A stretch of DNA of 32,000 nt from Nostoc punctiforme PCC 73102 (GTDB lineage: Bacteria; Cyanobacteriota; Cyanobacteriia; Cyanobacteriales; Nostocaceae): NCBI RefSeq assembly GCF_000020025.1, contig NC_010628.1, positions 5,010,001 through 5,042,000 on the forward strand, in the 5' to 3' direction. Positions 3,052-31,370 of the stretch are shown here, piece after piece. Under the pieces are notes generated by a model. It was not told the DNA's origin and ran no database searches. It saw only the letters and a program-made list of their open reading frames with translations. How positions within the stretch are numbered: the stretch's first letter is position 1; each line of letters starts with the position of its first letter. Both the position numbers and the translations under genes were made by a program.

Positions 3052-3075
3052 AGAATTAATCTTTTGTTCTTTGCT

Positions 3076-3117
3076 AATAACCAATGCCCCATGCCCAATA
3101 ACTAATGGCTAATAAAA
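3076..3117. repeat. Tandem heptamer (STRR-type) array, 6 units
   Basis: aataacc|aatgccc|catgccc|aataact|aatggct|aataaaa. The fifth unit contains the ATG (3105-3107) of the next gene. Confidence 0.8.
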
Positions 3118-3878
3118 ATCCTAAATCTAAAATCCCAAATCTGTTACTCCCTTGGTTGGATGCTCTAGCAATTACATCTTGGGGCATTTTGATGTTGAGA
3201 TATTGGCTGACTAACAAGCTGAACTTATTGATTCACCCAAATTACATTTGGTTTGTGGTTGTGACAGGTATCAGCTTGATTGTTATTGGTTTCTTCAAGA
3301 TGCAGGAACTTTGGCAGCGCCGTCGCCGTGATGTTACGCCAAACGGCCAACATATTAGTTTATTTCCCCCTGGTTGGGGCAGTGTTTTATTGTTGACTAC
3401 AGCGATTCTAGGTTTTATCATTACACCGCAAGTTTTTGCTAGTGACAAAGCACTCCAAAGGGGCGTAACCACCGATTTATTGGGAAGTACACGCGTCAAA
3501 CCCCAAGCCTTTCGAGCTACTGTTCGTCCAGAGGAGCGATCGCTTGTAGATTGGGTACGCACTGTTAATGTCTATCCAGAACCAGACACATATACAGGTC
3601 AAAAAGTAAAAGTTCAAGGATTTGTTATTCATCCGCCAGATATAGGAAAAGAATATTTGTTCTTAGCCCGATTTGTCTTAACTTGCTGTGCAGCAGATGC
3701 TTACCCAGTAGGATTACCTGTCAAACTTCCAAACAATCAAGAACCTTATTCCCCTGACACTTGGCTGGAAGTAGAAGGACAAATGATGACAGAAAATTTG
3801 GCAGGTAAACGCCAACTTACCATTGCTGCTACTTCTCTCAAAAAAATTCCTCAACCCCAGAATCCTTATAGTTATTAA
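3105..3878 (+). CDS. TIGR03943/DUF1980 family protein (membrane partner of COG0701 permease)
   Basis: N-terminal TM helices plus a C-terminal domain with the family-typical LTCCAADAYPVGLPV motif. It lies immediately downstream of the permease gene. Confidence 0.8.
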   Translation: MANKNPKSKIPNLLLPWLDALAITSWGILMLRYWLTNKLNLLIHPNYIWFVVVTGISLIVIGFFKMQELWQRRRRDVTPNGQHISLFPPGWGSVLLLTTAILGFIITPQVFASDKALQRGVTTDLLGSTRVKPQAFRATVRPEERSLVDWVRTVNVYPEPDTYTGQKVKVQGFVIHPPDIGKEYLFLARFVLTCCAADAYPVGLPVKLPNNQEPYSPDTWLEVEGQMMTENLAGKRQLTIAATSLKKIPQPQNPYSY

Positions 3879-3886
3879 TTATTTGT

Positions 3887-3920
3887 TGATGACTAATGAC
3901 CAATGACCAATGACAAATAC
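3887..3920. repeat. Tandem heptamer array (TGACCAA/STRR2-like)
   Basis: tgatgac|taatgac|caatgac|caatgac|aaatac. The array resumes at 3943-3958 (gacaaat|gacaaaa) after a 22-bp insert. Confidence 0.8.
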
Positions 3921-3942
3921 TTCGGCTCCGCTCAGTACAAGT
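3921..3942. repeat. 22-bp mini-insert (small dispersed repeat) splitting a heptamer array
   Basis: ttcggctccgctcagtacaagt interrupts the heptamer array. It matches 17 of 22 positions of ttcggctacgctcacggcaagc at 7964-7985. Its ...tacaagt end recurs at 13618-24, also abutting a heptamer array. Confidence 0.6.
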
Positions 3943-7835: not shown

Positions 7836-7865
7836 AAATAGGTATTTTTCTAGAGAACTGATAGT

Positions 7866-7900
7866 GGGAATTGGGAATTGGAAATTGGAAATTGGGCATG
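7866..7900. repeat. Tandem heptamer array (GGGAATT/GGAAATT)
   Basis: gggaatt|gggaatt|ggaaatt|ggaaatt|gggcatg, directly upstream of the TauE start. Confidence 0.8.
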
Positions 7901-8014
7901 ATGATTCTTCTTGTCCCCTTATCCCCCTTATCTCCCCCTGCTTCCCCCGCCCCTCTGCTCCCGTTCGGCTACGCTCACGGCAAGCCTGCTCCCTGCTCCT
8001 TCTCCCTCATCCCC
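7901..8014 (-). repeat. G-tract hairpin element, copy a (G-rich on minus strand), with nested mini-insert at 7963-7985
   Basis: Minus-strand reading: ggggatgagggagaaggagcagggagcagg[cttgccgtgagcgtagccgaac]gggagcagaggggcgggggaagcagggggagataagggggataaggggacaagaagaatcat. It shares a 22-nt identical core (7926-7947) with copy b (9364-9385) in inverted orientation. It contains the stop codon of the sulfite-oxidase-like gene. Confidence 0.75.
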
Positions 8015-9293
8015 GTACTGTCACCGGATGGCTAACAATGCCTCCGTAGAGCAATCCAAAATCATTCCACGGAACCGTATTAGGTTGTGTGTTACCTAAA
8101 TTGTCAGTAGCACGAGCTTGGAGAAAATATTCGCCAGGAACTGGGTTCCATTCAATGTCCCATCGTGTCCATGCAAATGGAAAGTTTGGTTCTCTCAGTC
8201 GTGCAAGCTGCCAAGTTTTACCGCCATCTAGACTGACTTCTACACGGGCAATTTTTCCTTTCCCAGACCAAGAACGTCCACGTAGTAAATGGGTTCGAGC
8301 CGAAAGCGTAGCGGGCCAAGCCAACTCGAAAGCGCTTTTAACATTTTGATAGGTAATCAGCTTACCTTTATATGGTGCGATCGCAGGGTAATCTGCACCA
8401 ACCAGTACCATCTGCTCCGTTACCCACTGGGTATATATCGGTGTTTCAGAAACCTCAATCCGCTCAATCCATTTAACGTTGGCGTTTCCTCCCCAACCAG
8501 GGAATAAGACACGGCATGGCTGGCCATGATCTGGAGGTAATGGTTCTCCATTCATTGCATAGACGACGAGCGAGTTATCTGCTAATGCTTTGCTAATTGG
8601 AACTACACTGCTGAATTTAGATTTATTTGTCCCTTTTGAGTCCAACGAATCCACATCTGCACCCTCAACAAGTACATCTTTTGCTGTAGATTTCAATCCA
8701 GCCCGCTCTAATAATATGCTCAGTGGTACACCAGTCCACTCAGCCACACCAATGGCCCCAAGCCTCCATCGGGTTCCAGAGAGTGGTGTGTTGTAAGCCT
8801 CTTCAAAGAAACGCCGACCATTAGCAGCACACTCAATGGCACATGTTACTGAGATGGAAGGCATAGTGATGATTTCATCGTAAGTGAACTCGCAAGGGAC
8901 AGAAACGCCAGTTCCATGAATTTGCAAACGCCATATAGATGGGTCAAAGGGAGGAGGTGTACTGCGGTTGTGAACATAAAACCAATCGTTTGGTACTAAA
9001 TAACCACGCTCATACATCGCTTCCCAGTTCATCTCTAACGTGCCTTTGCTATGGGAGATATACCCTGGTGGTAATGGTTTAAGTATTTTACTGCCCTTAG
9101 TTTTAACAGCTGCCTGACTGTGAGCAGGCGCAGGTTTAGCTAAACCCCCGATGGCTGTTGCGCCAACCATCGTGGCTAGTATTTTCAGAAAGCGCTGGCG
9201 CGAAATACCTGCATCTGTGCTTTTTTGCCAGATGCACTCATCAACCCGTGCCTGTAGATAATCCTCTTGGTCAAAGAGGTTCTCATCGCTCAA
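8007..9293 (-). CDS. Sulfite oxidase family molybdopterin oxidoreductase (SorA-like), Tat-exported
   Basis: Tat-like signal SRQRFLKILATMVGATAIGGLAKPAPAHS. Mo-ligand cysteine context AIECAANGRRFF. C-terminal Ig-like Mo-co dimerisation domain (ARVEVSLDGGKTWQLARL). The ORF is open up to 9482, but that extension is translated repeat DNA. TTG at 9293 is preceded by AAGGGGG, 6 nt upstream, and is the likely start. Confidence 0.85.
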   Translation of the reverse strand: MSDENLFDQEDYLQARVDECIWQKSTDAGISRQRFLKILATMVGATAIGGLAKPAPAHSQAAVKTKGSKILKPLPPGYISHSKGTLEMNWEAMYERGYLVPNDWFYVHNRSTPPPFDPSIWRLQIHGTGVSVPCEFTYDEIITMPSISVTCAIECAANGRRFFEEAYNTPLSGTRWRLGAIGVAEWTGVPLSILLERAGLKSTAKDVLVEGADVDSLDSKGTNKSKFSSVVPISKALADNSLVVYAMNGEPLPPDHGQPCRVLFPGWGGNANVKWIERIEVSETPIYTQWVTEQMVLVGADYPAIAPYKGKLITYQNVKSAFELAWPATLSARTHLLRGRSWSGKGKIARVEVSLDGGKTWQLARLREPNFPFAWTRWDIEWNPVPGEYFLQARATDNLGNTQPNTVPWNDFGLLYGGIVSHPVTVRG

Positions 9294-9306
9294 GCTATAC
9301 CCCCTT

Positions 9307-9334
9307 GTAATTCGTAATGCGTAATTCGTAATTA
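9307..9334. repeat. Tandem heptamer array (GTAATTC-type)
   Basis: gtaattc|gtaatgc|gtaattc|gtaatta. Confidence 0.8.
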
Positions 9335-9340
9335 AGGCAC

Positions 9341-9458
9341 AGAGATGAAGGAGCAGAAGGGCAGGGGAAGCAGGGGGAGATAAGGAAGACAAGGAGGAAT
9401 TATTGAATAAGTCTCTCTCTTGTCTCCCCCCTCTTCCTTGTCTCCCTTGTCTCTTCTT
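9341..9458 (+). repeat. G-tract hairpin element, copy b (G-rich half, AT loop, C-rich half)
   Basis: agagatgaaggagcagaagggcaggggaagcagggggagataaggaagacaaggagg - aattattgaataagt - ctctctcttgtctcccccctcttccttgtctccc... 9375-9389 can pair with 9432-9446 (15 bp, one G:U). Confidence 0.75.
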
Positions 9459-9486
9459 CATGCCCCATACCCCATGCCCCATGCGC
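9459..9486. repeat. Tandem heptamer array (CATGCCC-type)
   Basis: catgccc|cataccc|catgccc|catgcgc. Confidence 0.8.
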
Positions 9487-11682: not shown

Positions 11683-11729
11683 CTTTAATCTCCCCTGCTC
11701 CCTGCCTCGTTCCCCCCTGCCTCTTCTTG
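11683..11729 (-). repeat. G-tract element, copy c (short, G-rich on minus strand)
   Basis: Minus-strand reading: caagaagaggcaggggggaacgaggcagggagcaggggagattaaag. It shares the gcagggagcaggggagat motif with the other copies. Confidence 0.6.
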
Positions 11730-11920: not shown

Positions 11921-13471
11921 ATGAATGAAGCTGACACCTCAAATAAGGGGGCTGTGATGGAATCCCTAAATTCTGCTAATTCGCCACAATCGGAGCAGGC
12001 GAGTTGTCCCTTTTACTCAGTTGTGCCTAATGACAATATGGCAGTTAAACAACTGCCACTCCTCATGCCGGCTGAAGATAGACAATTTTCAAAAGATACC
12101 ACCCAGCAGGACTGGGTTGCAGAGCCGGAAATCGGCAAGCAAGCACTTATTGATTCAGAATTTCAGAACCTGCTGGCATTGAACGAAGAATTGCGTGCAG
12201 CTAACAATAACTTGTATGAACAAGTAGAGCAGCTAAAAGACAACCTAGCTGAGTCTGAAAAGGTTTTGCAGTGGCAGAAAACGCGCTCTAGCGTTACTGA
12301 GTCGATGCTCAACCAACATACTCAGGAATTAGCTGCGGCTCAAGAACAGATAAAATCTTTATTTCAACAATTAGAAATTGCTGTACAAACTATTCAACGT
12401 CAGGAAATTTTCACTGATAGTTATAAAGCACAGCTACAAATTAGCCAGCAACGCCTTGCCCAGCTAGAGCGAGAATGTACGTTGTTACACACTAATAACA
12501 ACGAACAGTCTGAGCAGTTATTGCAGTCAGAAACTGTTTGTCGGGAGTTACGTACTAGGCTGATGCGACAACAACGTCAGACGCTGCAATTTAAAGCAGC
12601 TCTGGAAAAATGTTTAGATACATCGGTTCCTAGCTATGACTCTTTAGAAGATACTGCACAACACCCCAAAGACATAACTAGCGGACAAGGAAGATTTTCT
12701 AGAAAAGCTCGGTCTTTGTTTCCTAATGCCCAGCCAATTAAACCTTGGTCAGCAGAATCAGAATCATTGACTGAAAATGAAGATGATTCTTGGGGTGAAC
12801 CGTCAGCACCAATCCCATTCCAAAGAACTGAGCCGACTCCACCGCCATCATCTTCTTGGAACTGGTCAGTTAAAAAAAATACCCCAAAAGCAGCAGAACC
12901 TCCTGCTCCCTTTCCAAAAATTGACGATTCCCCAGATACACCTGAAGCTGTTTCAACTTCGGGCTCATCCAATTTAGATCAGCAATTAGATAGTCTCATC
13001 CAAATGTTTTTCACTTCCCAGCCTCCATCTACATCACCACCGCCTACTGCAAAAACAGATGTGGATGCTAATAATGCCCCTGTCTGGGAGACTTTGGCAA
13101 CAATTATAGAAGACGATGAAAAAGTAGAAAATCAACGGGAGAAGGAGTTGGAGGCAGAAATTAATCCCCCTGTAACTACCTCTACTTCTTGGACGACAGA
13201 TTCTGTACTTTCACCAGCCAATAACTTACTGCTGTCTTCTACCTCCTTCCACACTGAGCCGCCTATTGGAGAAGCTGAAGATTACTGGTCAGAAGTTTCT
13301 CAATTGTCACAGTTGGAATTGTCAGAAAATGATTTTTCCTCAGAGTCATTAGGTGATAACACCAATGACGGTAATTCACCTTCACCTGTGGTTTATCCCC
13401 AACGTCCACCCAAGGGGCGTAAGTCGTTGGCATCTGTGGAACTACCGAATTTTCGCCCCAAGAGTCAATAG
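11921..13471 (+). CDS. Hypothetical coiled-coil protein with Pro/Ser/Thr/Glu-rich disordered C-terminal half
   Basis: 516-aa ORF (GTG 11918 / ATG 11921). Residues ~75-230 are heptad-like and Q/E/L-rich (LLALNEELRAANNNLYEQVEQLKDNLAESEKVLQ...). The C-terminal half is low-complexity (PPPSSSW, PPSTSPPPT). No enzymatic motif is visible. Confidence 0.7.
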   Translation: MNEADTSNKGAVMESLNSANSPQSEQASCPFYSVVPNDNMAVKQLPLLMPAEDRQFSKDTTQQDWVAEPEIGKQALIDSEFQNLLALNEELRAANNNLYEQVEQLKDNLAESEKVLQWQKTRSSVTESMLNQHTQELAAAQEQIKSLFQQLEIAVQTIQRQEIFTDSYKAQLQISQQRLAQLERECTLLHTNNNEQSEQLLQSETVCRELRTRLMRQQRQTLQFKAALEKCLDTSVPSYDSLEDTAQHPKDITSGQGRFSRKARSLFPNAQPIKPWSAESESLTENEDDSWGEPSAPIPFQRTEPTPPPSSSWNWSVKKNTPKAAEPPAPFPKIDDSPDTPEAVSTSGSSNLDQQLDSLIQMFFTSQPPSTSPPPTAKTDVDANNAPVWETLATIIEDDEKVENQREKELEAEINPPVTTSTSWTTDSVLSPANNLLLSSTSFHTEPPIGEAEDYWSEVSQLSQLELSENDFSSESLGDNTNDGNSPSPVVYPQRPPKGRKSLASVELPNFRPKSQ

Positions 13472-13534
13472 TCATTTGTCAATAGTCATTTGTCATTTGT
13501 CTAAATACTAAGACCAATGACCAATGACTAATAC
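13464..13534. repeat. Two heptamer arrays in opposite orientation (GTCATTT x6, then GACCAAT x3)
   Basis: gtcaata|gtcattt|gtcaata|gtcattt|gtcattt|gtctaaa ... gaccaat|gaccaat|gactaat. The first array contains the TAG stop (13469-13471) of the coiled-coil gene. Confidence 0.8.
13484..13529 (+). terminator. Hairpin formed by the inverted heptamer arrays (candidate terminator)
   Basis: agtcatttgtcatttgtc (13484-13501) pairs with gaccaatgaccaatgact (13512-13529) at 16 of 18 positions, with a 10-nt loop. It starts 13 nt after the stop codon. Confidence 0.4.
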
Positions 13535-13624
13535 AACTCTTAGAGAGGCTGCGCCCTAGGCGTAGCTATGCCGCAGGCTTTACGACTACGCGGTAGTTGG
13601 GCGCAGTCGAAACTCACTACAAGT
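13535..13624. repeat. 90-bp dispersed-repeat insert separating heptamer arrays
   Basis: acaactcttagagaggctgcgccctaggcgtagctatgccgcaggctttacgactacgcggtagttgggcgcagtcgaaactcactacaagt. It shares its core with 1598-1614 and ends in ...tacaagt like the 3921-3942 insert. Confidence 0.6.
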
Positions 13625-13673
13625 GACCAATTACCAATAACCAATAACCAATAACCAATGACCAATGACTAAT
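13625..13673. repeat. Tandem heptamer array (NACCAAT x7)
   Basis: gaccaat|taccaat|aaccaat|aaccaat|aaccaat|gaccaat|gactaat. The last unit contains the stop codon (13669-13671) of the minus-strand oxidoreductase gene. Confidence 0.85.
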
Positions 13674-15840
13674 TGAGAATCCTTGCTTCTGACTTCGGGA
13701 TTACGGCTTCTGGGTTTGTCTTTGCTACTTGAGAGCGCGATCGCGGTTTGCCTGTGGCGATCGCATAATTAATCGCCAATAGCCACAGCCACAAGCCAGG
13801 ATTTCGGGGTTCTAACCAAAAACCTACCCGGTTTAAGAAGCGCCCAAACCAGGGGCTTAGCAAAGCGCTAACGAGAGCATGACGACCGAAATTGAAATAA
13901 CTACCAAGCCATCGCATTAAATCTCTAGGCCCAGCTAGTTCCCAAATCCATAAAAGTAAGGCAGGATTTTTCCTAGCGGCTTTGAGTGCTAGGCGATTAA
14001 AGGTTAACCAATCACACCTATCTTTGATAAAGTTATCTGCTACTTCTTGGGGTTCATCTGCTAACAATCCAAAGAAGGTGTTGAGCATAGAGTTAATGCG
14101 CTGGGGTGGTAAGAATTTCCCAGTGGGTACCATCATGCCTTTGGAAAATAGCCAAGTCACGGAAACATTGCTTTGATAAGCTCGAATTTGGTTCAAGTGG
14201 CGGAAACTCAACAAGTCATGTTTGAGAGCAGTATCCAACAGTGTTGTTAAGCGCTCTAAGTTGCGAACTAGCGAACCAAAACCGGTGAAGACGAGGGGAG
14301 ATTGAAGTGATGCCGCATCACCGATCGCAATCAATCGATCGAAGGCAACTGTGCGATCGCTACTTCCTACACTAAAATGCCCTGGTATATACCCAAATGT
14401 CGGCTTCTTCCACACCAATTTGTCCATATCGCACCTGCGATACTCTGGCAAAATCGTGAAAAAGTCCTCGTACATCTCTAGCAAAGAACCAGGATTTTCA
14501 GCATTGACTTCATGGTAATGAAATAAATAAATCGTCAATTCATCATCTGCTGCGGGAAACAGTTCCCAAATTAACTGCCTTCCCCGCGAAATATCCCCAT
14601 GACTATAAAGAACGTCCCCGTATTGCGAATCCCATACTCCCGGCTCAAATCCGCTCTCAATTGCCGCACCTACTGTTGGGCATACGCTATCAAAGGCACG
14701 ACCACCATTTAACTGCCAAGCGATGGGTGAGGCAGTTCCCATTGCATCTATTAGCAGTCTTCCACTTACTTGTTTTTCAACCTGACTAGGTAAGTGCTTG
14801 ACTTGCAACAGAACTTGTGATATATCAATATCTGCACGCATAAATTCTGTTTCATCCCAGATTTCGCCGCCTGCCGCTTGCAGCTTTTGCCCACACATTT
14901 GGAGCCATTTTTCGGAATCTAAGCCTAAATTTAGGACTGTGGGTGTGTGCAGAACGGGCGATCGCAGTTTGGATGGATTGTTCGCATCAAAAAACTTATT
15001 GAATCCATCTTTGTATTCCCTAGCAATGATGGTTTCTAACTCAGCGGGGGTGACTAAACCCAGGTTAACCAAGCTTTGAATCTCATCGCGAGAAATATTC
15101 CATTCTCGGTTCATCCGGCCAAAGGGCATTCGTTCCACCAGCAGGACTTTATATCCTAGTTTTGCCATCAATGCTGCATGAATCGCGCCTAGTGCGCCGC
15201 CGATATAAATCAGGTCGTAAGTAGGGGATGAGGAGGATGATGAAGATATTATTTTTCCATCTCTCCCTGCTCCCCTGCTCCCCTGCTCCCCTGCTCCCCT
15301 GCTCCCCTGTCCCCTGTCCCCTCGACTGGAAAACACAACTTGACGCGGCTGCTGCGGATTTCGTACTCCTTCGCGCCACCGTTGTTCCCACCAGTAGGCA
15401 CGTGTTAGATCGTATTCACCGTTGGGCATTTTCTGAAAATACTTGACGGTGAGGGGGTAAGCAGAGGCTAAAGCGGCAAAAATCGATTGTTGGGATAAAT
15501 CAATCGGTGGTGGTTCCGGGTAATGATGCGGAAAACGGCTTCTAATTTCTTTGGTTAGGCGTTGCAGAATTTGTCCCTCACAGGGAAAGGGTTGTTCTGC
15601 CCAACGAAACACTTTCAGATAGGTAGTTCGTTGCACTGACCAAACAAATACCGAAAGTTCTACAGGCAAGTTTTCGGAAAGAGCCGCCCCAGCAGGTGTC
15701 TTAGCACTGGGTATTTTGAGGCGAAAGCCTTCCAAAGTAAGCACTTTTTCTCCATTTCCAGGTTCAAAATCTGTTTGTAGCCAGCTACGCACAGTTTCTA
15801 TATCTGGAGTTGGAACTTCTAAATAAAGGATTTCTCTCAT
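13669..15840 (-). CDS. FAD-dependent oxidoreductase, CruA/CruP-like (putative lycopene cyclase family) with repeat-derived in-frame insert
   Basis: 723-aa ORF with the Rossmann dinucleotide-binding motif YDLIYIGGALGAIHAALMAKLGYKVLLVE. Size and architecture (N-terminal extra domain, flavoprotein core, hydrophobic C-terminus) resemble cyanobacterial CruA-type proteins. That family assignment is from memory, not from a search. Confidence 0.75.
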   Translation of the reverse strand: MREILYLEVPTPDIETVRSWLQTDFEPGNGEKVLTLEGFRLKIPSAKTPAGAALSENLPVELSVFVWSVQRTTYLKVFRWAEQPFPCEGQILQRLTKEIRSRFPHHYPEPPPIDLSQQSIFAALASAYPLTVKYFQKMPNGEYDLTRAYWWEQRWREGVRNPQQPRQVVFSSRGDRGQGSRGAGEQGSRGAGRDGKIISSSSSSSPTYDLIYIGGALGAIHAALMAKLGYKVLLVERMPFGRMNREWNISRDEIQSLVNLGLVTPAELETIIAREYKDGFNKFFDANNPSKLRSPVLHTPTVLNLGLDSEKWLQMCGQKLQAAGGEIWDETEFMRADIDISQVLLQVKHLPSQVEKQVSGRLLIDAMGTASPIAWQLNGGRAFDSVCPTVGAAIESGFEPGVWDSQYGDVLYSHGDISRGRQLIWELFPAADDELTIYLFHYHEVNAENPGSLLEMYEDFFTILPEYRRCDMDKLVWKKPTFGYIPGHFSVGSSDRTVAFDRLIAIGDAASLQSPLVFTGFGSLVRNLERLTTLLDTALKHDLLSFRHLNQIRAYQSNVSVTWLFSKGMMVPTGKFLPPQRINSMLNTFFGLLADEPQEVADNFIKDRCDWLTFNRLALKAARKNPALLLWIWELAGPRDLMRWLGSYFNFGRHALVSALLSPWFGRFLNRVGFWLEPRNPGLWLWLLAINYAIATGKPRSRSQVAKTNPEAVIPKSEARILN
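15224..15322 (-). repeat. G-tract hairpin element, copy d, inside the CDS and in frame
   Basis: Sense strand: ggggaca x2, ggggagca x4, gggagagatggaaaaataatatcttcatcatcctcctcatcccc. It is translated as RGDRGQGSRGAGEQGSRGAGRDGKIISSSSSSSP, immediately before the FAD-binding fold. Confidence 0.8.
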
Positions 15841-18381: not shown

Positions 18382-18413
18382 AGCAAGATGCTCGGTTTCT
18401 CAAAGCAGTAAGG

Positions 18414-18456
18414 GATTTCCGATAACAATGATCGGGCTTCGTCGTTATCGGAAATC
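18414..18456 (+). terminator. 13-bp perfect stem-loop after the nucleotidyltransferase gene
   Basis: gatttccgataac - 17-nt loop - gttatcggaaatc, starting 33 nt after the TAG stop (18379-18381). It lies between convergent genes. Confidence 0.45.
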
Positions 18457-18472
18457 TGTTACAAAATCTTAT
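18433..18472. repeat. Direct repeat copy 1 (3' side of the exonuclease gene)
   Basis: cgggcttcgtcgttatcggaaatctgttacaaaatcttat. A 20-nt identical core, ttcgtcgttatcggaaatct (18438-18457), also occurs at 19131-19150. Confidence 0.8.
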
Positions 18473-18497
18473 AAGTGCGATCGCATAGCTATCTTAC

Positions 18498-19055
18498 TTA
18501 ACGCTGTAGATTCGCTTGCAAAAGATTACAGAATAACTTTCCTTGCTGAATGGCATCATCCAAGGCAATGTGAGCCAATGGAAGATTTTCTAACCATGCA
18601 GCAGGTAGATTATCCTTTCCAGATTCGTTGTAGCTTTGTTTTAAGAATGCCATCGCATAGGAACGGATATCCAATGCCGAAAATTTAAAGGGGCTATCGC
18701 CCACAAAATTTATCAAGTACCAGTAGACAAACATAAAGTCATAGGCGGCTGGATAGCCAACAAAGATCGGTTTTCCTGGTAAAGCTACAAGCCAGGAGTG
18801 GTAAGACTTCATGACTTCTACAGGGGGCTGGGGGTCGGCTCTACTAGCTGCCCAAGCATCTGGTTGTTCTGCCCACCATTTCATAGTTTTGGGATGTCCT
18901 TGGGCTCCTGGCAAGGTTTCTAAATTAGCTGTAAAAGTCCCAACCAATTGTTTGTCTGCGGTATACGCAGCTGAGGCAAGACTAAGCATAGAATGGGGCC
19001 CAGGGATAGGGCCATCCGCTTCTATATCAGTGCTGACGTAGATTTCGATTGTCAC
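18498..19055 (-). CDS. DEDDh-type 3'-5' exonuclease (Rv2179c-like small exoribonuclease family)
   Basis: 185-aa ORF with Exo [10 protein letters not shown], Exo [15 protein letters not shown] and Exo [13 protein letters not shown] (H-x4-D). Confidence 0.85.
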
Positions 19056-19124: not shown

Positions 19125-19165
19125 CGGGTTTTCGTCGTTATCGGAAATCTATGACAAAATCTCAC
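19125..19165. repeat. Direct repeat copy 2 (5' side of the exonuclease gene)
   Basis: cgggttttcgtcgttatcggaaatctatgacaaaatctcac is ~85% identical to copy 1 and lies 70 nt upstream of the exonuclease start codon. Confidence 0.8.
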
Positions 19166-19292
19166 AGATGCAACCAAGTACAGCACTTCTGATTAACAAA
19201 CCGCCTTCTCTGTGAAAGGCTTCTACTTTCAGAGACGCTAACGCGTAACTCTTACTCTGTGGGAAGGTGAAACGCCTATGCGCTAAAAAAAA

Positions 19293-21754: not shown

Positions 21755-21797
21755 AATTAATTCACTGTGTAACTGCAAGCCACACAGTGAATTAATT
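21755..21797. terminator. Bidirectional stem-loop between convergent hicB and murD
   Basis: Perfect 16-bp stem aattaattcactgtgt (21755-21770) / acacagtgaattaatt (21782-21797) with an 11-nt loop. The right arm abuts the murD stop codon. Confidence 0.5.
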
Positions 21798-23295
21798 ATA
21801 GAGAAGATGAAAGCATCAAGTTGTGTTGAAGCTTTCCTCCTGCCGCCCAAGCAAGGCACAACTCACGAAAACGATCGCCGCGCACCTCAAAATTTGGGTA
21901 CTGATCGAAACTCGCACAGGCTGGAGATAGCAACACCACAGGCGCTTGATACTCCTTGGCTAATTCCGCCGATCTGGGAACTGCCCTTTCCATAGTTTCC
22001 ACAATTTCGTAAGAATAATACCCCACTTCTTGCAGGCGTTGAGCAAATGCGGGTGCAGCAGAGCCAATCAATAATACAGCAGCAGCTTTGGTTTGGATTT
22101 GTGCTAGCCAGCCAGTATCATCTCCTGCTTTGGCTTCTCCACCAGCAATTAAAATCGCTGGACTTTTCACAGATGCTAAACCAACTTCGGCCGCATCGTA
22201 GTTGGTGGCTTTGCTGTCGTTGATGAAATCAATACCTTCCCAAGTGCAGATATGCTCCAAACGATGAGGAACGCCGGGGAATTCCTGAATCGCACGTGCG
22301 ATCGCATCACGATTAATTCCCGCTAATCGTGCCGTTGCTACTGCCATCAAGAGATTTTGCTGATTATGTTCTCCCACCATCCGCAAAGTAGATACTTTCA
22401 CAATCGGTTCTGGTGCTGAGGTTGCAGTCAATTTTTCCACAACCCAGCCGTTCTCGATGTAAAAGCCTTTTTCGCTAATCAGGAAATCTTTTCCTTTGAC
22501 ACTTGTCCAATAGGCATTAGGCCAAGCACTTAAACCTAACTGGCTCAAATAGGCATCATCGCCATTGAACACTTGCAACTCTGACTGACGCAACAGCTTT
22601 GCTTTGATGTTGTAATAGTTCTCTAAAGTCTTATGCCGACTCAGATGATCCGGTGTAAAAGTCGTCCAAACACCGATACGGGGTGCAAGAGAACTGGAAG
22701 ATTCTATTTGATAGCTGCTAACCTCCGCAATCACCCAATCGAGCGAGGGGGATGAGGAAGAATTTACTTCCCTATCTCCCCCTGCTCCCTGCTCCCTGCC
22801 CCCTGCCCCTCTCCCGCTCCAAGAAAGGGCAACTTCACAAGCGGCGTAGCCAATGTTACCGCAGGCGGGCGCGTCTAATTCTGCTGCTTGAAAAATGGCA
22901 GCAATTAAAGCTGTGGTAGTAGTTTTACCGTTAGTACCTGTAATTCCTACCCAAGGTAGCGATGCCTGCGGCTGGCTGCGCCAACGCAAATTTCGCCAAG
23001 CGAGTTCCATTTCCCCAATGGTTTCAATACCTAATTGGCGTGCCTTGATTAATACGGGAATATCCCAAGGCACGCCAGGACTAACAACTATTAATTGGGG
23101 TAAATTATCACCATTTAATTCTAGGGATTGGCCTAGTTTAACGGTTATTTGCTCGGCAGCGAGTTCTTGTTGTTGTTGTAGGAGGGTTTTGGAGGTGTTG
23201 CCATCACTCAGCTCTACCTCCCAACCTTCCCGTTTCAACAATCTCGCCGCAGCAACACCGGACTTTCCCAATCCAATAACATGAGCTTTGGACAT
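21796..23295 (-). CDS. murD: UDP-N-acetylmuramoyl-L-alanine--D-glutamate ligase
   Basis: N-terminal [17 protein letters not shown]-loop [16 protein letters not shown] and EVSSYQIE blocks, and C-terminal domain RLE...[12 protein letters not shown] 23295 is preferred over TTG 23304. Confidence 0.95.
22747..22818 (-). repeat. G-tract hairpin element, copy e, inside murD and in frame
   Basis: Sense strand: agcgggagaggggcagggggcagggagcagggagcagggggagatagggaagtaaattcttcctcatcccc. It is translated as [24 protein letters not shown], between the GNIG block and the SSYQIE strand. Confidence 0.8.
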
Positions 23296-23380
23296 AGATT
23301 GCAAGCAGAGTGTCCCTGGTTAAGCACTCCCTATAGTAGCGTCTATTGGCAAAAATTACACAACTTTTTGTTGACTTACG

Positions 23381-29599: not shown

Positions 29600-31225
29600 A
29601 TGTCCCATTCTGAGTTCCCTGATTCTCCCCTTCCAGTTGAAATAGAACAGCCTGCTGTTATTGATTCTAGTCAACAGCCACAACCACTGCCAGAGCGATC
29701 GCCTAAACCACCTCAAAAGCGTCGTTGGCCTCTAATTTTGGGAATTATCCTCTTAATTGGAGGCATTGGTTTTGGTTGGCGCTGGTGGCAAACTAGTAGT
29801 GCTAGCAATCCACCAGCAGGTGGGCCAGCTGCTGGTCAACCGATGGCAATTCCAGTCAAGCTAGCGACTGTTCAACCTGAAACTGTGCAAGAGAGTTCGG
29901 AGTTTATTGGCTCCTTAGAGGCTCCACGTTCGGTAATTATCAAGCCACAGGTTGAGGGACGAGTTACCCAAATTTATATCAAAGAGGGCAACCGTGTTCA
30001 ACAAGGGCAAGTTATTATTAGCCTAGAAAGTGATAGTGTCCAAGCGCAATTATTACAAGCAAAAGCTGCACTAGCACAAGCTCAAGCACGTCTTGCTGAA
30101 CTCAAAGCAGGTACGCGACAAGAAGAAGTTGCCCAAGCTAGAGCGCAGTTAACCCAAGCCCAAGCTCGCTTGCGAGATGCTCAATCGGGGTCGCAACCAC
30201 AAGAAATTGCTCAAGCTGAGGCTCAAATTCAGTCAGCTAAATCAGATGTAGAACTAGCACAGTCACGAGCCAAGCGATACGCACAATTGAGAAAAGAGGG
30301 CGCAGTTTCTCAAGATACCTTAGAAGGATATGTCAAAGAACAGCAAAGTGCTGAAGCTGCACTGGTTGTAGCCCAGAAACGCCTAGCTCAACTCCGCCAA
30401 AGCAGAACTTCTAGTGTCAATGAGCTGGCTGGAGCCTTGGAACAACAGAAACAAAACTTAAGGCAACTAGAAAATGGTTCCCGCCCAGAAGAAATTGCCC
30501 AAGCGCGATCGCAAGTAACTCAAGCAGCAGCCCAAGTCCAAGCAGCCCAAGTTCAACTGCAATACACAAAAGTTCTGGCACCTTTTACTGGTACTGTTGG
30601 CGATATTCCCACAAAAGTGGGAGATTATGTAGAAAAAGCAGATCAACTCACTACACTTACTAGAAACGATTCTTTAGAACTAAATATTTCCGTTCCCCTA
30701 GAAGAAGCCAAAAAGCTGCGCTTGGGATTACTAGTGCAAATGCTGAACATCCAAGGTCAACCTACAGCAACGGGTAAGATAAGTTTCATCTCTCCAGATG
30801 CTAGTTCAGATTCGCAGACAATTTTGGTTAAAGCTAATTTTGGTAATTCTAGAAGTCAACTGGTAAATCGCCAATCAGTGCAAACCAAAGTGATCTGGAA
30901 CGAACGTCCAGGAATATTAATTCCAGTTACAGCAGTATCTCGCCTGGGTGGGGAGACCTTTGTATTTGTAGCTGAAGCGCCAACAGAAAAGAAAGCTGAA
31001 CCAACAGAAAAAAAAGCTGAAGCGCCAGCAGAAAAGAAAGCTGGAGCGCCATCTTTAGTTGCTCAACAAAAACCTGTGAAATTGGGAGTTATTGAGGGGA
31101 ATAATTATCAAGTTATCGAAGGACTAAAAGCTGGAGACAAAATTGTTGTTTCCGGTATTCTCAACCTAACTAATGGCGCTCCCATCACTCCCGCACCGCA
31201 AGAAGTGGGTAGTCAGAAGCCATAG
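29600..31225 (+). CDS. RND efflux transporter periplasmic adaptor (MFP/HlyD family)
   Basis: Pro-rich N-terminus, then a TM anchor (WPLILGIILLIGGIGFGW). A lipoyl-like half-motif (GRVTQIYIKEGNRVQQGQVIISLE) is followed by a long coiled-coil hairpin with repeated EE[IV]AQA.AQ motifs, then beta-barrel and MP domains. Confidence 0.9.
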   Translation: MSHSEFPDSPLPVEIEQPAVIDSSQQPQPLPERSPKPPQKRRWPLILGIILLIGGIGFGWRWWQTSSASNPPAGGPAAGQPMAIPVKLATVQPETVQESSEFIGSLEAPRSVIIKPQVEGRVTQIYIKEGNRVQQGQVIISLESDSVQAQLLQAKAALAQAQARLAELKAGTRQEEVAQARAQLTQAQARLRDAQSGSQPQEIAQAEAQIQSAKSDVELAQSRAKRYAQLRKEGAVSQDTLEGYVKEQQSAEAALVVAQKRLAQLRQSRTSSVNELAGALEQQKQNLRQLENGSRPEEIAQARSQVTQAAAQVQAAQVQLQYTKVLAPFTGTVGDIPTKVGDYVEKADQLTTLTRNDSLELNISVPLEEAKKLRLGLLVQMLNIQGQPTATGKISFISPDASSDSQTILVKANFGNSRSQLVNRQSVQTKVIWNERPGILIPVTAVSRLGGETFVFVAEAPTEKKAEPTEKKAEAPAEKKAGAPSLVAQQKPVKLGVIEGNNYQVIEGLKAGDKIVVSGILNLTNGAPITPAPQEVGSQKP

Positions 31226-31286
31226 GGAAGGGCAAGGGGGCAGGGGAGCAGGGGGGCAGGGAAAGATAAGGGAAGAAGAAGAATAA
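31226..31286 (+). repeat. G-tract element, copy f, in the adaptor-pump intercistronic spacer
   Basis: gggaagggcaagggggcaggggagcaggggggcagggaaagataagggaagaagaagaataa starts directly after the TAG stop (31223-31225). Confidence 0.75.
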
Positions 31287-31370
31287 CTATGCCCAATGCC
31301 CCATTCCCCATGCCCAATTCCCCATGCCCAATGCCCCAATACCTAATGCCAAATACCCAAAGCCCAATTT
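31287..31370. repeat. Tandem heptamer array, 12 units (CCATGCC/CAATGCC-type)
   Basis: ctatgcc|caatgcc|ccattcc|ccatgcc|caattcc|ccatgcc|caatgcc|ccaatac|ctaatgc|caaatac|ccaaagc|ccaattt. Confidence 0.85.

Follow-up and report, generated by a model that had tools for sequence, protein, structure and literature searches.

Results and Discussion

A Composite Repeat in Frame within murD

Analysis of a 32,000-nucleotide stretch of the Nostoc punctiforme PCC 73102 genome (contig NC_010628.1, positions 5,010,001 to 5,042,000; hereafter the window) showed that murD, the gene for the essential peptidoglycan enzyme UDP-N-acetylmuramoyl-L-alanine--D-glutamate ligase, carries a composite DNA repeat in frame at a single loop of the encoded protein. 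The DNA of the insert is that of a repeat with further copies in the window, the loop is short in the ancestral state of the enzyme, and the orthologous inserts of related cyanobacteria differ by whole repeat units and by nested modules, with the reading frame and the freedom from stop codons conserved. A repeat element of 72 nt in frame in murD had been claimed in a preliminary description made from the nucleotide letters of the window, and the present work follows up that claim.

The mechanical open reading frame (ORF) of murD extends over 21796..23304 on the minus strand and encodes 502 amino acid residues, the annotated start being the ATG at position 23295. The annotated 499-residue product was 100% identical to the N. 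punctiforme MurD deposited at NCBI. It contained the three Mur ligase Pfam domains and matched the TIGR01087 murD profile with 381 bits (cut-off 211.95), the profile match being broken into two at the insert; MurD sequences from the PDB also aligned in two pieces, with the break at the same place. The 24 codons on the coding strand from 22818 to 22747, together with both flanks, were read exactly as previously claimed. They fall within a variable loop segment of 28 residues (22741..22824, minus strand), located between the helix that follows the GNIG motif and the strand ELSSYQ. Since this segment stands in place of a 5-residue loop, for example AEKLP, in orthologues with an empty site, the insert adds about 23 codons.

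The AlphaFold model of the window MurD had a mean predicted local distance difference test score (pLDDT) of 91.7, and its comparison with the crystal structures of E. coli MurD gave target-normalised TM-scores of 0.84–0.86. Residues ~161–186 were modelled as coil with a pLDDT of ~50, between a helix (residues 152–160) and a strand (residues 188–191), which supports the loop location proposed earlier. In this model the insert is a low-confidence coil in what appears to be a permissive loop, and the remaining MurD fold is predicted to be intact. From the topology of the Mur ligase central domain, the loop presumably sits at the strand end that faces away from the active site.

As a DNA sequence, the insert is composed of a G-rich tandem array of 6–8-nt units, then GGGGGAGATAGGGAAG, the spacer TAAATT, and finally CTTCCTCATCCCCC. 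The G-rich array (22767..22815, minus strand, 49 nt), recognised by Tandem Repeats Finder (TRF) and by motif enrichment, is built of irregular units (GGGAGCA or GGGGGCA) and terminates in GGGGGAGATAGGGAAG; for 22780–22820 TRF reported a period of 7 with 6.3 copies, 83% matches and 13% indels. Its coding strand has seven G-tracts and fits, as a regular expression requiring at least four tracts of three or more G with short loops between them, the motif of a putative G-quadruplex. The A/T-rich spacer (22761..22766, minus strand) is the loop of an imperfect hairpin, in which the pyrimidine arm CTTCCTCATCCCCC (22747..22760, minus strand), coding for SSSSP, pairs imperfectly with the proximal G arm. 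The pyrimidine arm has grown to (TCATCCCCC)n in Nostoc CHAB 5836 (locus L014; L numbers designate individual loci throughout). At 64%, the GC content of the insert exceeded that of the remaining murD sequence (47%) and that of the window (42%). No 24-nt SDR-like module was found within the 72-nt insert of the window, and Rfam and tRNA scans of the window returned nothing.

Empty and Occupied Sites in MurD Orthologues

The span from GNIG to SSYQ was measured in 137 diverse MurD representatives, obtained as clusters at 50% identity. Its mode was 28 residues (87 of the 137 sequences) and it exceeded 34 residues in six of them, as compared with 51 residues in the window MurD; the loop was thus short in 131 of the 137. 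Equally long segments in distant orthologues had been named beforehand as the observation that would speak against an insertion, and the claim stands after this comparison.

The picture within the genus was different. Extra sequence was present at exactly this site in all of the best 120 Nostoc MurD clusters (86–100% identity), with lengths of 12–52 residues and in 107 distinct versions. No other large internal indel hot spot exists in the protein, whose remaining columns are 94% conserved. A second, small indel hot spot was observed in the Nostoc orthologues at residues 105–111 (WRSQPQA, ~22972–22992, minus strand), just upstream of the P-loop, and the extra residues at this position are absent from Tolypothrix and Hassallia MurD.

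At species level, 80 Nostocales murD loci were retrieved from genome assemblies by tblastn, and 76 of them could be parsed at the site. A 5-residue loop (AEKLP, SEKLP) was found in 21 genomes, including those of Tolypothrix PCC 7101, Trichormus, Halotia, Cylindrospermum, Nodularia, Anabaenopsis, Cuspidothrix and three strains named Nostoc. The site was occupied in the other 55 genomes, by 54 distinct sequences of up to 80 residues. Because the loop is short in nearly all of the diverse MurD proteins and the site is empty in these 21 Nostocales genomes, the short loop is taken as the ancestral state. Whether the 24 codons are specific to a lineage or to a strain had been left as a question by the preliminary description, and the answer is divided: the particular sequence is effectively strain-specific, but occupancy is lineage-wide in Nostoc, where it predates the species, and patchy elsewhere in the Nostocales. 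An assembly artefact was ruled out by the presence of the insert in a complete genome and in ~200 independent assemblies.

Variation among Orthologous Inserts

In the general plan shared by the occupied sites, a tandem array rich in purines or in G is followed by a short A/T-rich centre and then by a pyrimidine-rich array; in 42 of 49 occupied loci, purines were more frequent in the first half of the insert than in the second. Across loci the left arrays were built of the units GGGGAGCA, GGGGACA, GGAGATAAG and GGAGAAGCA. The right arrays and their readings were (CTCCTAA)n, giving SSLLTPN, (CCAAAAT)n, giving IQNPKSKIQN, and (TCATCCCCC)n, giving SSP. Stigonema has inverted heptamer arrays as its two arms, (GGGGAGT)n on the left and (ACTCCCC)n on the right.

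Lengths changed by unit steps that preserve the frame, namely three heptamers (7 residues), three octamers (8 residues), one nonamer (3 residues) or one 18-mer. Copy-number variants were found for SSLLTPN (three heptamers, one to three times), for the 9-nt units encoding GDK, SSP and GEA, and for GAGGDE (18 nt, four times). The term expandable, applied to the repeat in the preliminary description, is borne out by this unit-step variation between close relatives.

In addition to the arrays, small modules were found nested in the orthologous inserts. The 24-nt module GCACTTCGGCTACGCTCAGTGACC is present in L008 and L012 and missing from the otherwise colinear L010, L007 and L017, as a clean indel. 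Other nested modules have 27–30 nt (L015, L030) or 48 nt (L020), and the murD loops of several species hold one to three copies of a 24-nt palindrome (…GTACAGACGCGATTAATCGCGTC…). Outside murD (L017:4183, L079:3020 and L078:2424) this palindrome takes the GTAG-tagged form GTAGAGACGCGATTAATCGCGTCTCTAC, which was also detected in the murD loops of L005, L009, L019 and L027 and is dispersed in the Nostocales; in Hassallia a GTAG-tagged palindrome was observed at a second murD position (GWVVETRLIASLQ). The window itself contains, at 7961–7984, the 24-nt module CCGTTCGGCTACGCTCACGGCAAG, which splits an intergenic C-rich array and has relatives in the murD arrays of Nostoc L008 and L012 and of Dolichospermum L059. 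These relatives show apparently compensatory changes in a short flanking stem, and the module probably represents an SDR family. In some orthologues (P0106, P0118) one module is seemingly nested inside another.

Each of two module families was read in two frames in different strains, as CTDAINRVS or VQTRLIASL for one and as AALRLRSVTE or NTSTSLSN for the other. Since both families are read in two different frames, the modules are DNA elements and not protein modules. The word mobile, as used in the preliminary description, applies to the small modules nested in orthologous inserts, and did not find the same support for the whole composite.

The distribution of alleles was compared with trees of the murD core nucleotides, which are gene trees and not species trees. 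Sister sequences with a bootstrap value of 100 differed in array family (L006, of the IQN type, and L001, of the SSLLTPN type; also L022 and L005) or in occupancy, as exemplified by the empty site of Halotia (L035) and the occupied one of Nostoc minutum (L027), and by L035 and L028. A single ancient gain followed by vertical descent is unsupported by this gene tree; recurrent gain or loss, gene conversion or recombination at the loop is needed to account for sisters that differ in family or occupancy.

Conservation of the Reading Frame

The length of the variable segment was a multiple of 3 nt in 49 of 49 measured loci, and all 80 loci retrieved by tblastn were free of stop codons across the site. 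The window copy is open in one of the three sense frames, namely the one that is used. In the (CTCCTAA)n arrays the unit whose TAA would be in frame reads TCA, and the units in the other two registers retain TAA. In agreement with these results, and with the MurD fold retained in the model, the repeat is tolerated without breaking the frame, as had been proposed. Judging from the conserved frame and stop-freeness, the insert appears to be translated and not removed.

Copies of the Composite outside murD

The enrichment of sub-motifs in the window was measured against dinucleotide-preserving shuffles. The motif GGGGGAGATARGGAAG, with up to 3 mismatches, gave 7 matches (0.32 expected), CTTCCTCATCCCC, with up to 2 mismatches, gave 7 (0.50 expected), and the G-array motif gave 9 (0.10 expected), so that the three sub-motifs are 14- to 90-fold over the shuffles. 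The 84-nt variable segment was then aligned by the gapped local Smith-Waterman method with both strands of the rest of the window, using 300 dinucleotide-shuffled queries as control. The best score was 70, for a copy in a cruA-like gene, and the shuffles gave 25.8 ± 3.6 with a maximum of 41; none of the 300 reached 70 (z ~12). The 42-nt core without the G-array scored 32 against 22.1 ± 2.0 for the shuffles, of which again none of 300 was as high. The likeness between the insert and the other copies, on whose significance in a proper alignment the original claim had been made to depend, is upheld by these scores.

The closest partner of the murD insert, which was not on the earlier list of copies and was located by TRF and alignment, is an in-frame composite at ~15224..15325 (minus strand) in the cruA-like flavoprotein gene (13669..15840, minus strand, 723 residues), just before the FAD-binding sequence YDLIYIGGALG. 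Its parts are (GGGGAGCA)x7.5, GGGAGAGATGG, an A/T spacer and CTTCATCATCCTCCTCATCCCC, with SRGDRGQGSRGAGEQGSRGAGRDGKIISSSSSSSP as the encoded peptide; TRF reported a period of 8 with 7.5 copies and 98% matches. At the corresponding position, cruA orthologues across the Nostocales are hypervariable and repeat-like, and relatives at 97% identity differ there by 8 residues, equal to three octamers, or in the length of a serine run.

The preliminary description had listed four non-coding copies of the same architecture, and these turned out to be unequal. Both arms are present in the copy at 9341..9458 (minus strand), where a purine arm is joined through an AT loop to a pyrimidine arm that contains CCTTATCTCCCCCTGCTTCCCC. 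Its hairpin is the strongest of all (z = −2.3), and no other copy has one that is clearly more stable than shuffles. A mechanical ORF for a molybdopterin oxidoreductase (8007–9482, minus strand) was observed to stay free of stop codons through this repeat. A twin-arginine motif (SRQRFLK) lies ~94 codons into this ORF and suggests that the real start is downstream, in which case the repeat is probably 5′ non-coding sequence. The copies at 7901–8014 and 31226–31286 agree with the proposed architecture in part: both have GATAAGG, an AT spacer and a G-array in common, and both run on into other heptamer arrays. The former (7901..8014, minus strand) comprises a G-array with GGGGGAGATAAGG followed by a (CCCAATT)n heptamer array, and is interrupted by the SDR-like module at 7961–7984 described above. 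The latter, when followed to its end (31226..31368, plus strand), leads from a G-array through GATAAGGGAAG and an AT spacer into an (ATGCCCA)n heptamer array; it begins one base past the stop codon of an adaptor gene and gave the second-best alignment, with a score of 51. At 11683..11729 (plus strand) there is a short C-rich array of the CCCTGCT type without a core, and only the array part of the claim applies to it.

A third host gene was found on plasmid p057_G of Nostoc sp. C057 (NZ_CP040288.1), where an NHLP bacteriocin export ABC-transporter gene (L081:1465-1550) carries GEGVGSGEWGVGEAEEQRSRGAGGVNSSSSPY in frame in the linker preceding the ATPase domain. The 17-mer GTAAATTCTTCCTCATC is common to this copy and the murD insert. 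The in-frame composite is therefore present in three unrelated genes, murD, the cruA-like gene and the transporter gene of C057. When three copies of the composite were compared with plasmids by blastn, a search in which the low-complexity filter stripped most of the signal, one good match (C057) and a few weak Nostoc matches were obtained. A metagenome scan with the 17-mer gave 120 loci, all of them chance matches from unrelated environments and none beside G-arrays, and a protein-database search with a 48-residue composite query of the insert peptide gave no match at E ≤ 10.

Other Repeats in the Window

Heptamer arrays of the STRR type were noted at 3071–3142, 3869–3925, 7865–7896, 9307–9333, 9459–9484, 13459–13532, 13617–13687 and 31289–31368. 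The heptamer arrays of the window cluster at gene ends or within a few bases of them, and several touch stop codons. The RND/HlyD-type periplasmic adaptor gene (ORF 29600..31225) has an in-frame 24-nt tandem repeat at 30970–31051 (plus strand), with ~3.5 copies encoding AEAPTEKK-like units. A small ORF (18498..19055) is flanked by a 41-nt direct repeat (85% identity; 18408–18478 and 19131–19171) with an adjoining 24-nt inverted repeat. HIP1 sites (GCGATCGC) are numerous and spread through the window.

Comparison with Known Repeat Systems

The STRR are said to have been described by Mazel et al. in 1990 as short tandemly repeated heptanucleotide arrays of heterocystous cyanobacteria, known mainly as intergenic sequences. 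Arrays of this type also make up the murD and cruA inserts, STRR likewise being tandem arrays with a 7-nt period that are restricted to the Nostocales and scattered through the genome, and TRF found at least 10 heptamer arrays in the 32 kb, mostly at gene ends and including ATGACCA, the complement of TTGGTCA. The units of murD and cruA (GGGAGCA, GGGGGCA, GGGGAGCA and 9-mers) are, however, not those of the canonical STRR1-3, whereas other arrays of the window (ATGACCA, GACCAAT) match the complement of TTGGTCA. The murD array further differs from STRR in being irregular, paired with a pyrimidine arm and placed inside an essential coding sequence. The elements SDR1-8 of N. punctiforme were reportedly defined by Elhai et al. 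in 2008 (Genome Res 18:1484, a paper cited in PMC3116915 and PMC5861425) as sequences of 21–27 nt, often embedded in heptamer arrays or in one another and present or absent between relatives. The 24-nt modules of the orthologous murD inserts and of 7961–7984, with their clean indels between relatives, resemble this description in their behaviour; the N. punctiforme murD insert itself differs in having no such module.

Rickettsia palindromic elements (RPE) are dispersed palindromic repeats located in frame in unrelated housekeeping genes, translated and compatible with the fold of the protein (PMC10969869). By analogy, the composite is a repeat family in frame in several unrelated genes, with a presumably translated extra peptide and a fold that is kept in the model. 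RPEs differ in having ~100–150 bp and a conserved peptide; the murD composite has no sequence kinship with them, no conserved peptide (107 of 120 versions distinct), an extreme diversity at one site, and nesting. In Nostoc sp. PCC 7120, GGGGA(C/T)T heptamers form G-quadruplexes and are 32% intragenic and 68% intergenic (Rehm et al. 2015, PMC4692102). These are also G-rich heptamer arrays of Nostocaceae, and the murD array fits the quadruplex motif, but the unit sequence is another one and no hypervariable in-frame loops in an orthologue series are described there. REPs inside ORFs encode 20–80 extra residues, and both N. punctiforme and Anabaena are reported to have GTAG families (Di Nocera et al. 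2013, PMC3733652); a palindrome with the GTAG tag likewise occurs in orthologous murD loops, but is absent from the insert of the window. Small in-frame variable segments between strains, often at the surface or in linkers, were reported for E. coli, S. aureus and a third species (Touzain et al. 2010, PMC2884548), and share with the murD insert the short intragenic, strain-variable nature and the kept frame; no repeat-family composites or nesting are described for them.

The murD insert thus works like an RPE or an intragenic REP without belonging to those families, and is built like STRR from non-canonical units. We found no account in the searchable literature of an essential enzyme in which a single loop serves as a hypervariable nest throughout a genus, with nested modules and over 100 alleles that keep the frame. 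The murD insert is a clear example of selfish or slippery DNA tolerated by a protein, though one that has precedents; its ingredients are known, and it is not a new kind of system.

Origin and Evolution of the Insert

The results are best accounted for by the following sequence of events, which taken as a whole we regard as likely. A copy of a dispersed Nostocales composite repeat would have become established in a permissive surface loop of MurD, by ectopic copying or by insertion of a hairpin-forming repeat, and would since have been transcribed and translated with murD as a disordered loop rich in Gly, Ser and Arg. Once seeded, the site would have become a nest of repeats, in which arrays lengthen and shorten by slippage or unequal exchange; slippage would explain the length steps. 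SDR- or REP-like mini-elements of 24–48 nt, which favour such arrays, would insert into them, and whole array families would be swapped between lineages. The peptide itself may be neutral, and selection on murD would filter solely for a net length that is a multiple of three and for the absence of stops in the used frame, since murD is needed and only variants that keep the frame and are free of stops pass selection.

Several results weigh against this mechanism. Comparison of empty and filled sites revealed neither a target-site duplication nor defined termini of the composite, so that the sites do not show the whole element to have landed as a discrete unit. In some genera the (CCAAAAT)n arrays could have arisen locally out of a native CAAAAAC-like sequence. 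The arms of the murD copy pair at −33.5 kcal/mol, with z = −1.1 against composition-matched shuffles; as the folding energies of the murD and cruA copies were no more favourable than those of shuffles, the hairpin was dropped as the defining structure of the composite. Translation of the insert is something that we infer from frame conservation and is not an observation. The metagenome, protein and plasmid searches are uninformative on the genome-wide copy number, and the census of copies reaches as far as the 32-kb window. Finally, no Nostoc sensu stricto orthologue without the insert was found among those sampled, which pure neutrality does not predict. This lack of reversion to the empty state leaves room for a function, or else exact deletions may be rare.

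The points just named bear in part on other explanations. The insert could have been born in place, by slippage on native proto-repeats, the likeness between copies then reflecting a mutational bias of replication shared by the Nostocales instead of copying or mobility. Such an origin is plausible for the A-rich arrays, as empty sites hold CAAAAAC or GAAAAACTTCC beside the position occupied by (CCAAAAT)n arrays in Dolichospermum and Fischerella, and it agrees with the missing target-site duplication and termini and with the abundant unit-step variation. The empty sites, however, contain no G-rich seed; the A/T core with its pyrimidine arm recurs in unrelated genes and strains, as the 17-mer, the alignment score of the cruA copy and a BLAST E-value of 7e-6 indicate; and the nested 24–48-nt modules are clean insertions of dispersed sequences. 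For the insert as a whole we consider this origin unlikely. Quite unlikely, in our estimate, is a functional peptide, that is, a flexible low-complexity loop kept by selection, perhaps because it interacts with the divisome or septum or because an inhibitor drives its diversification. It would explain why at least 12 residues are present in every one of the Nostoc clusters and in the sampled Nostoc sensu stricto genomes, and why the same site is filled in many other Nostocales genera. Neither a residue nor a length is conserved among the many versions, though, and the DNA modules are read in different frames and recur as identical DNA in intergenic regions. Moreover, more than a quarter of the parsed Nostocales genomes (21/76) manage with a 5-residue loop, and the unrelated CruA and ABC transporter carry the same composite.

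A role at the level of the nucleic acid, by which a G-quadruplex or hairpin would adjust transcription, the stability of the mRNA or the pausing of translation between subdomains, might be proposed from the seven coding-strand G-tracts that match the quadruplex motif and from the related Nostoc G-rich heptamers, which form quadruplexes in vitro and of which about a third are intragenic (PMC4692102). Moreover, five of the six G-rich arrays of the window have their G-rich side on the sense strand of the host or neighbour gene. Many orthologous inserts nevertheless lack four G-tracts, as exemplified by L024 and L015 (IQN type, G fraction ~0.2), the hairpin is not significant against shuffles, and Rfam gave no match; a role of this type is accordingly rated as improbable. 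Removal of the segment before the mature enzyme is formed, as an intron-like or intein-like intervening sequence, had been left as an option by the preliminary description, and nothing beyond the interruption of a conserved enzyme speaks for it. An excised RNA or protein segment would leave frame and stop-freeness unconstrained, but both are kept across ~160 different alleles; 24 low-complexity codons are far too short for an intein, and the window has no Rfam intron match. On grounds of size and conserved frame, intein or intron removal was ruled out, and we give it next to no credence.

Establishment of a dispersed composite repeat, followed by slippage, nesting and exchange, thus remains the preferred explanation. 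A bolder form of it would make the composite itself a discrete hairpin-forming mobile element of the Nostocales, frame-compatible in coding loops and linkers and subsequently a landing pad for SDR and REP mini-elements, in other words a counterpart of the Rickettsia RPEs generating hypervariable peptide loops in many housekeeping proteins. We put this forward tentatively, as a possibility that is more doubtful than not.

Conclusions

An essential peptidoglycan enzyme carries, at one loop, 12–80 residues of essentially arbitrary repeat-encoded sequence that turns over faster than the rest of the protein. The murD loop is therefore a large natural experiment in insertion tolerance, and marks a permissive site for tagging or engineering MurD. 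The same segment provides a single-locus, PCR-sized and highly discriminating marker of Nostoc strains, among them the symbionts of lichens and plants. There is as yet no explanation for the origin and mobility of STRR and SDR in heterocystous cyanobacteria, and the murD site, where every allele would be kept intact by selection for the frame, is a tractable data set on the target rules and rates of such repeats, with arrays, 24–48-nt modules and empty states that can be compared over hundreds of genomes. If the composite were indeed a discrete mobile element, the murD site would be a natural trap recording insertions at single-nucleotide resolution across hundreds of strains.

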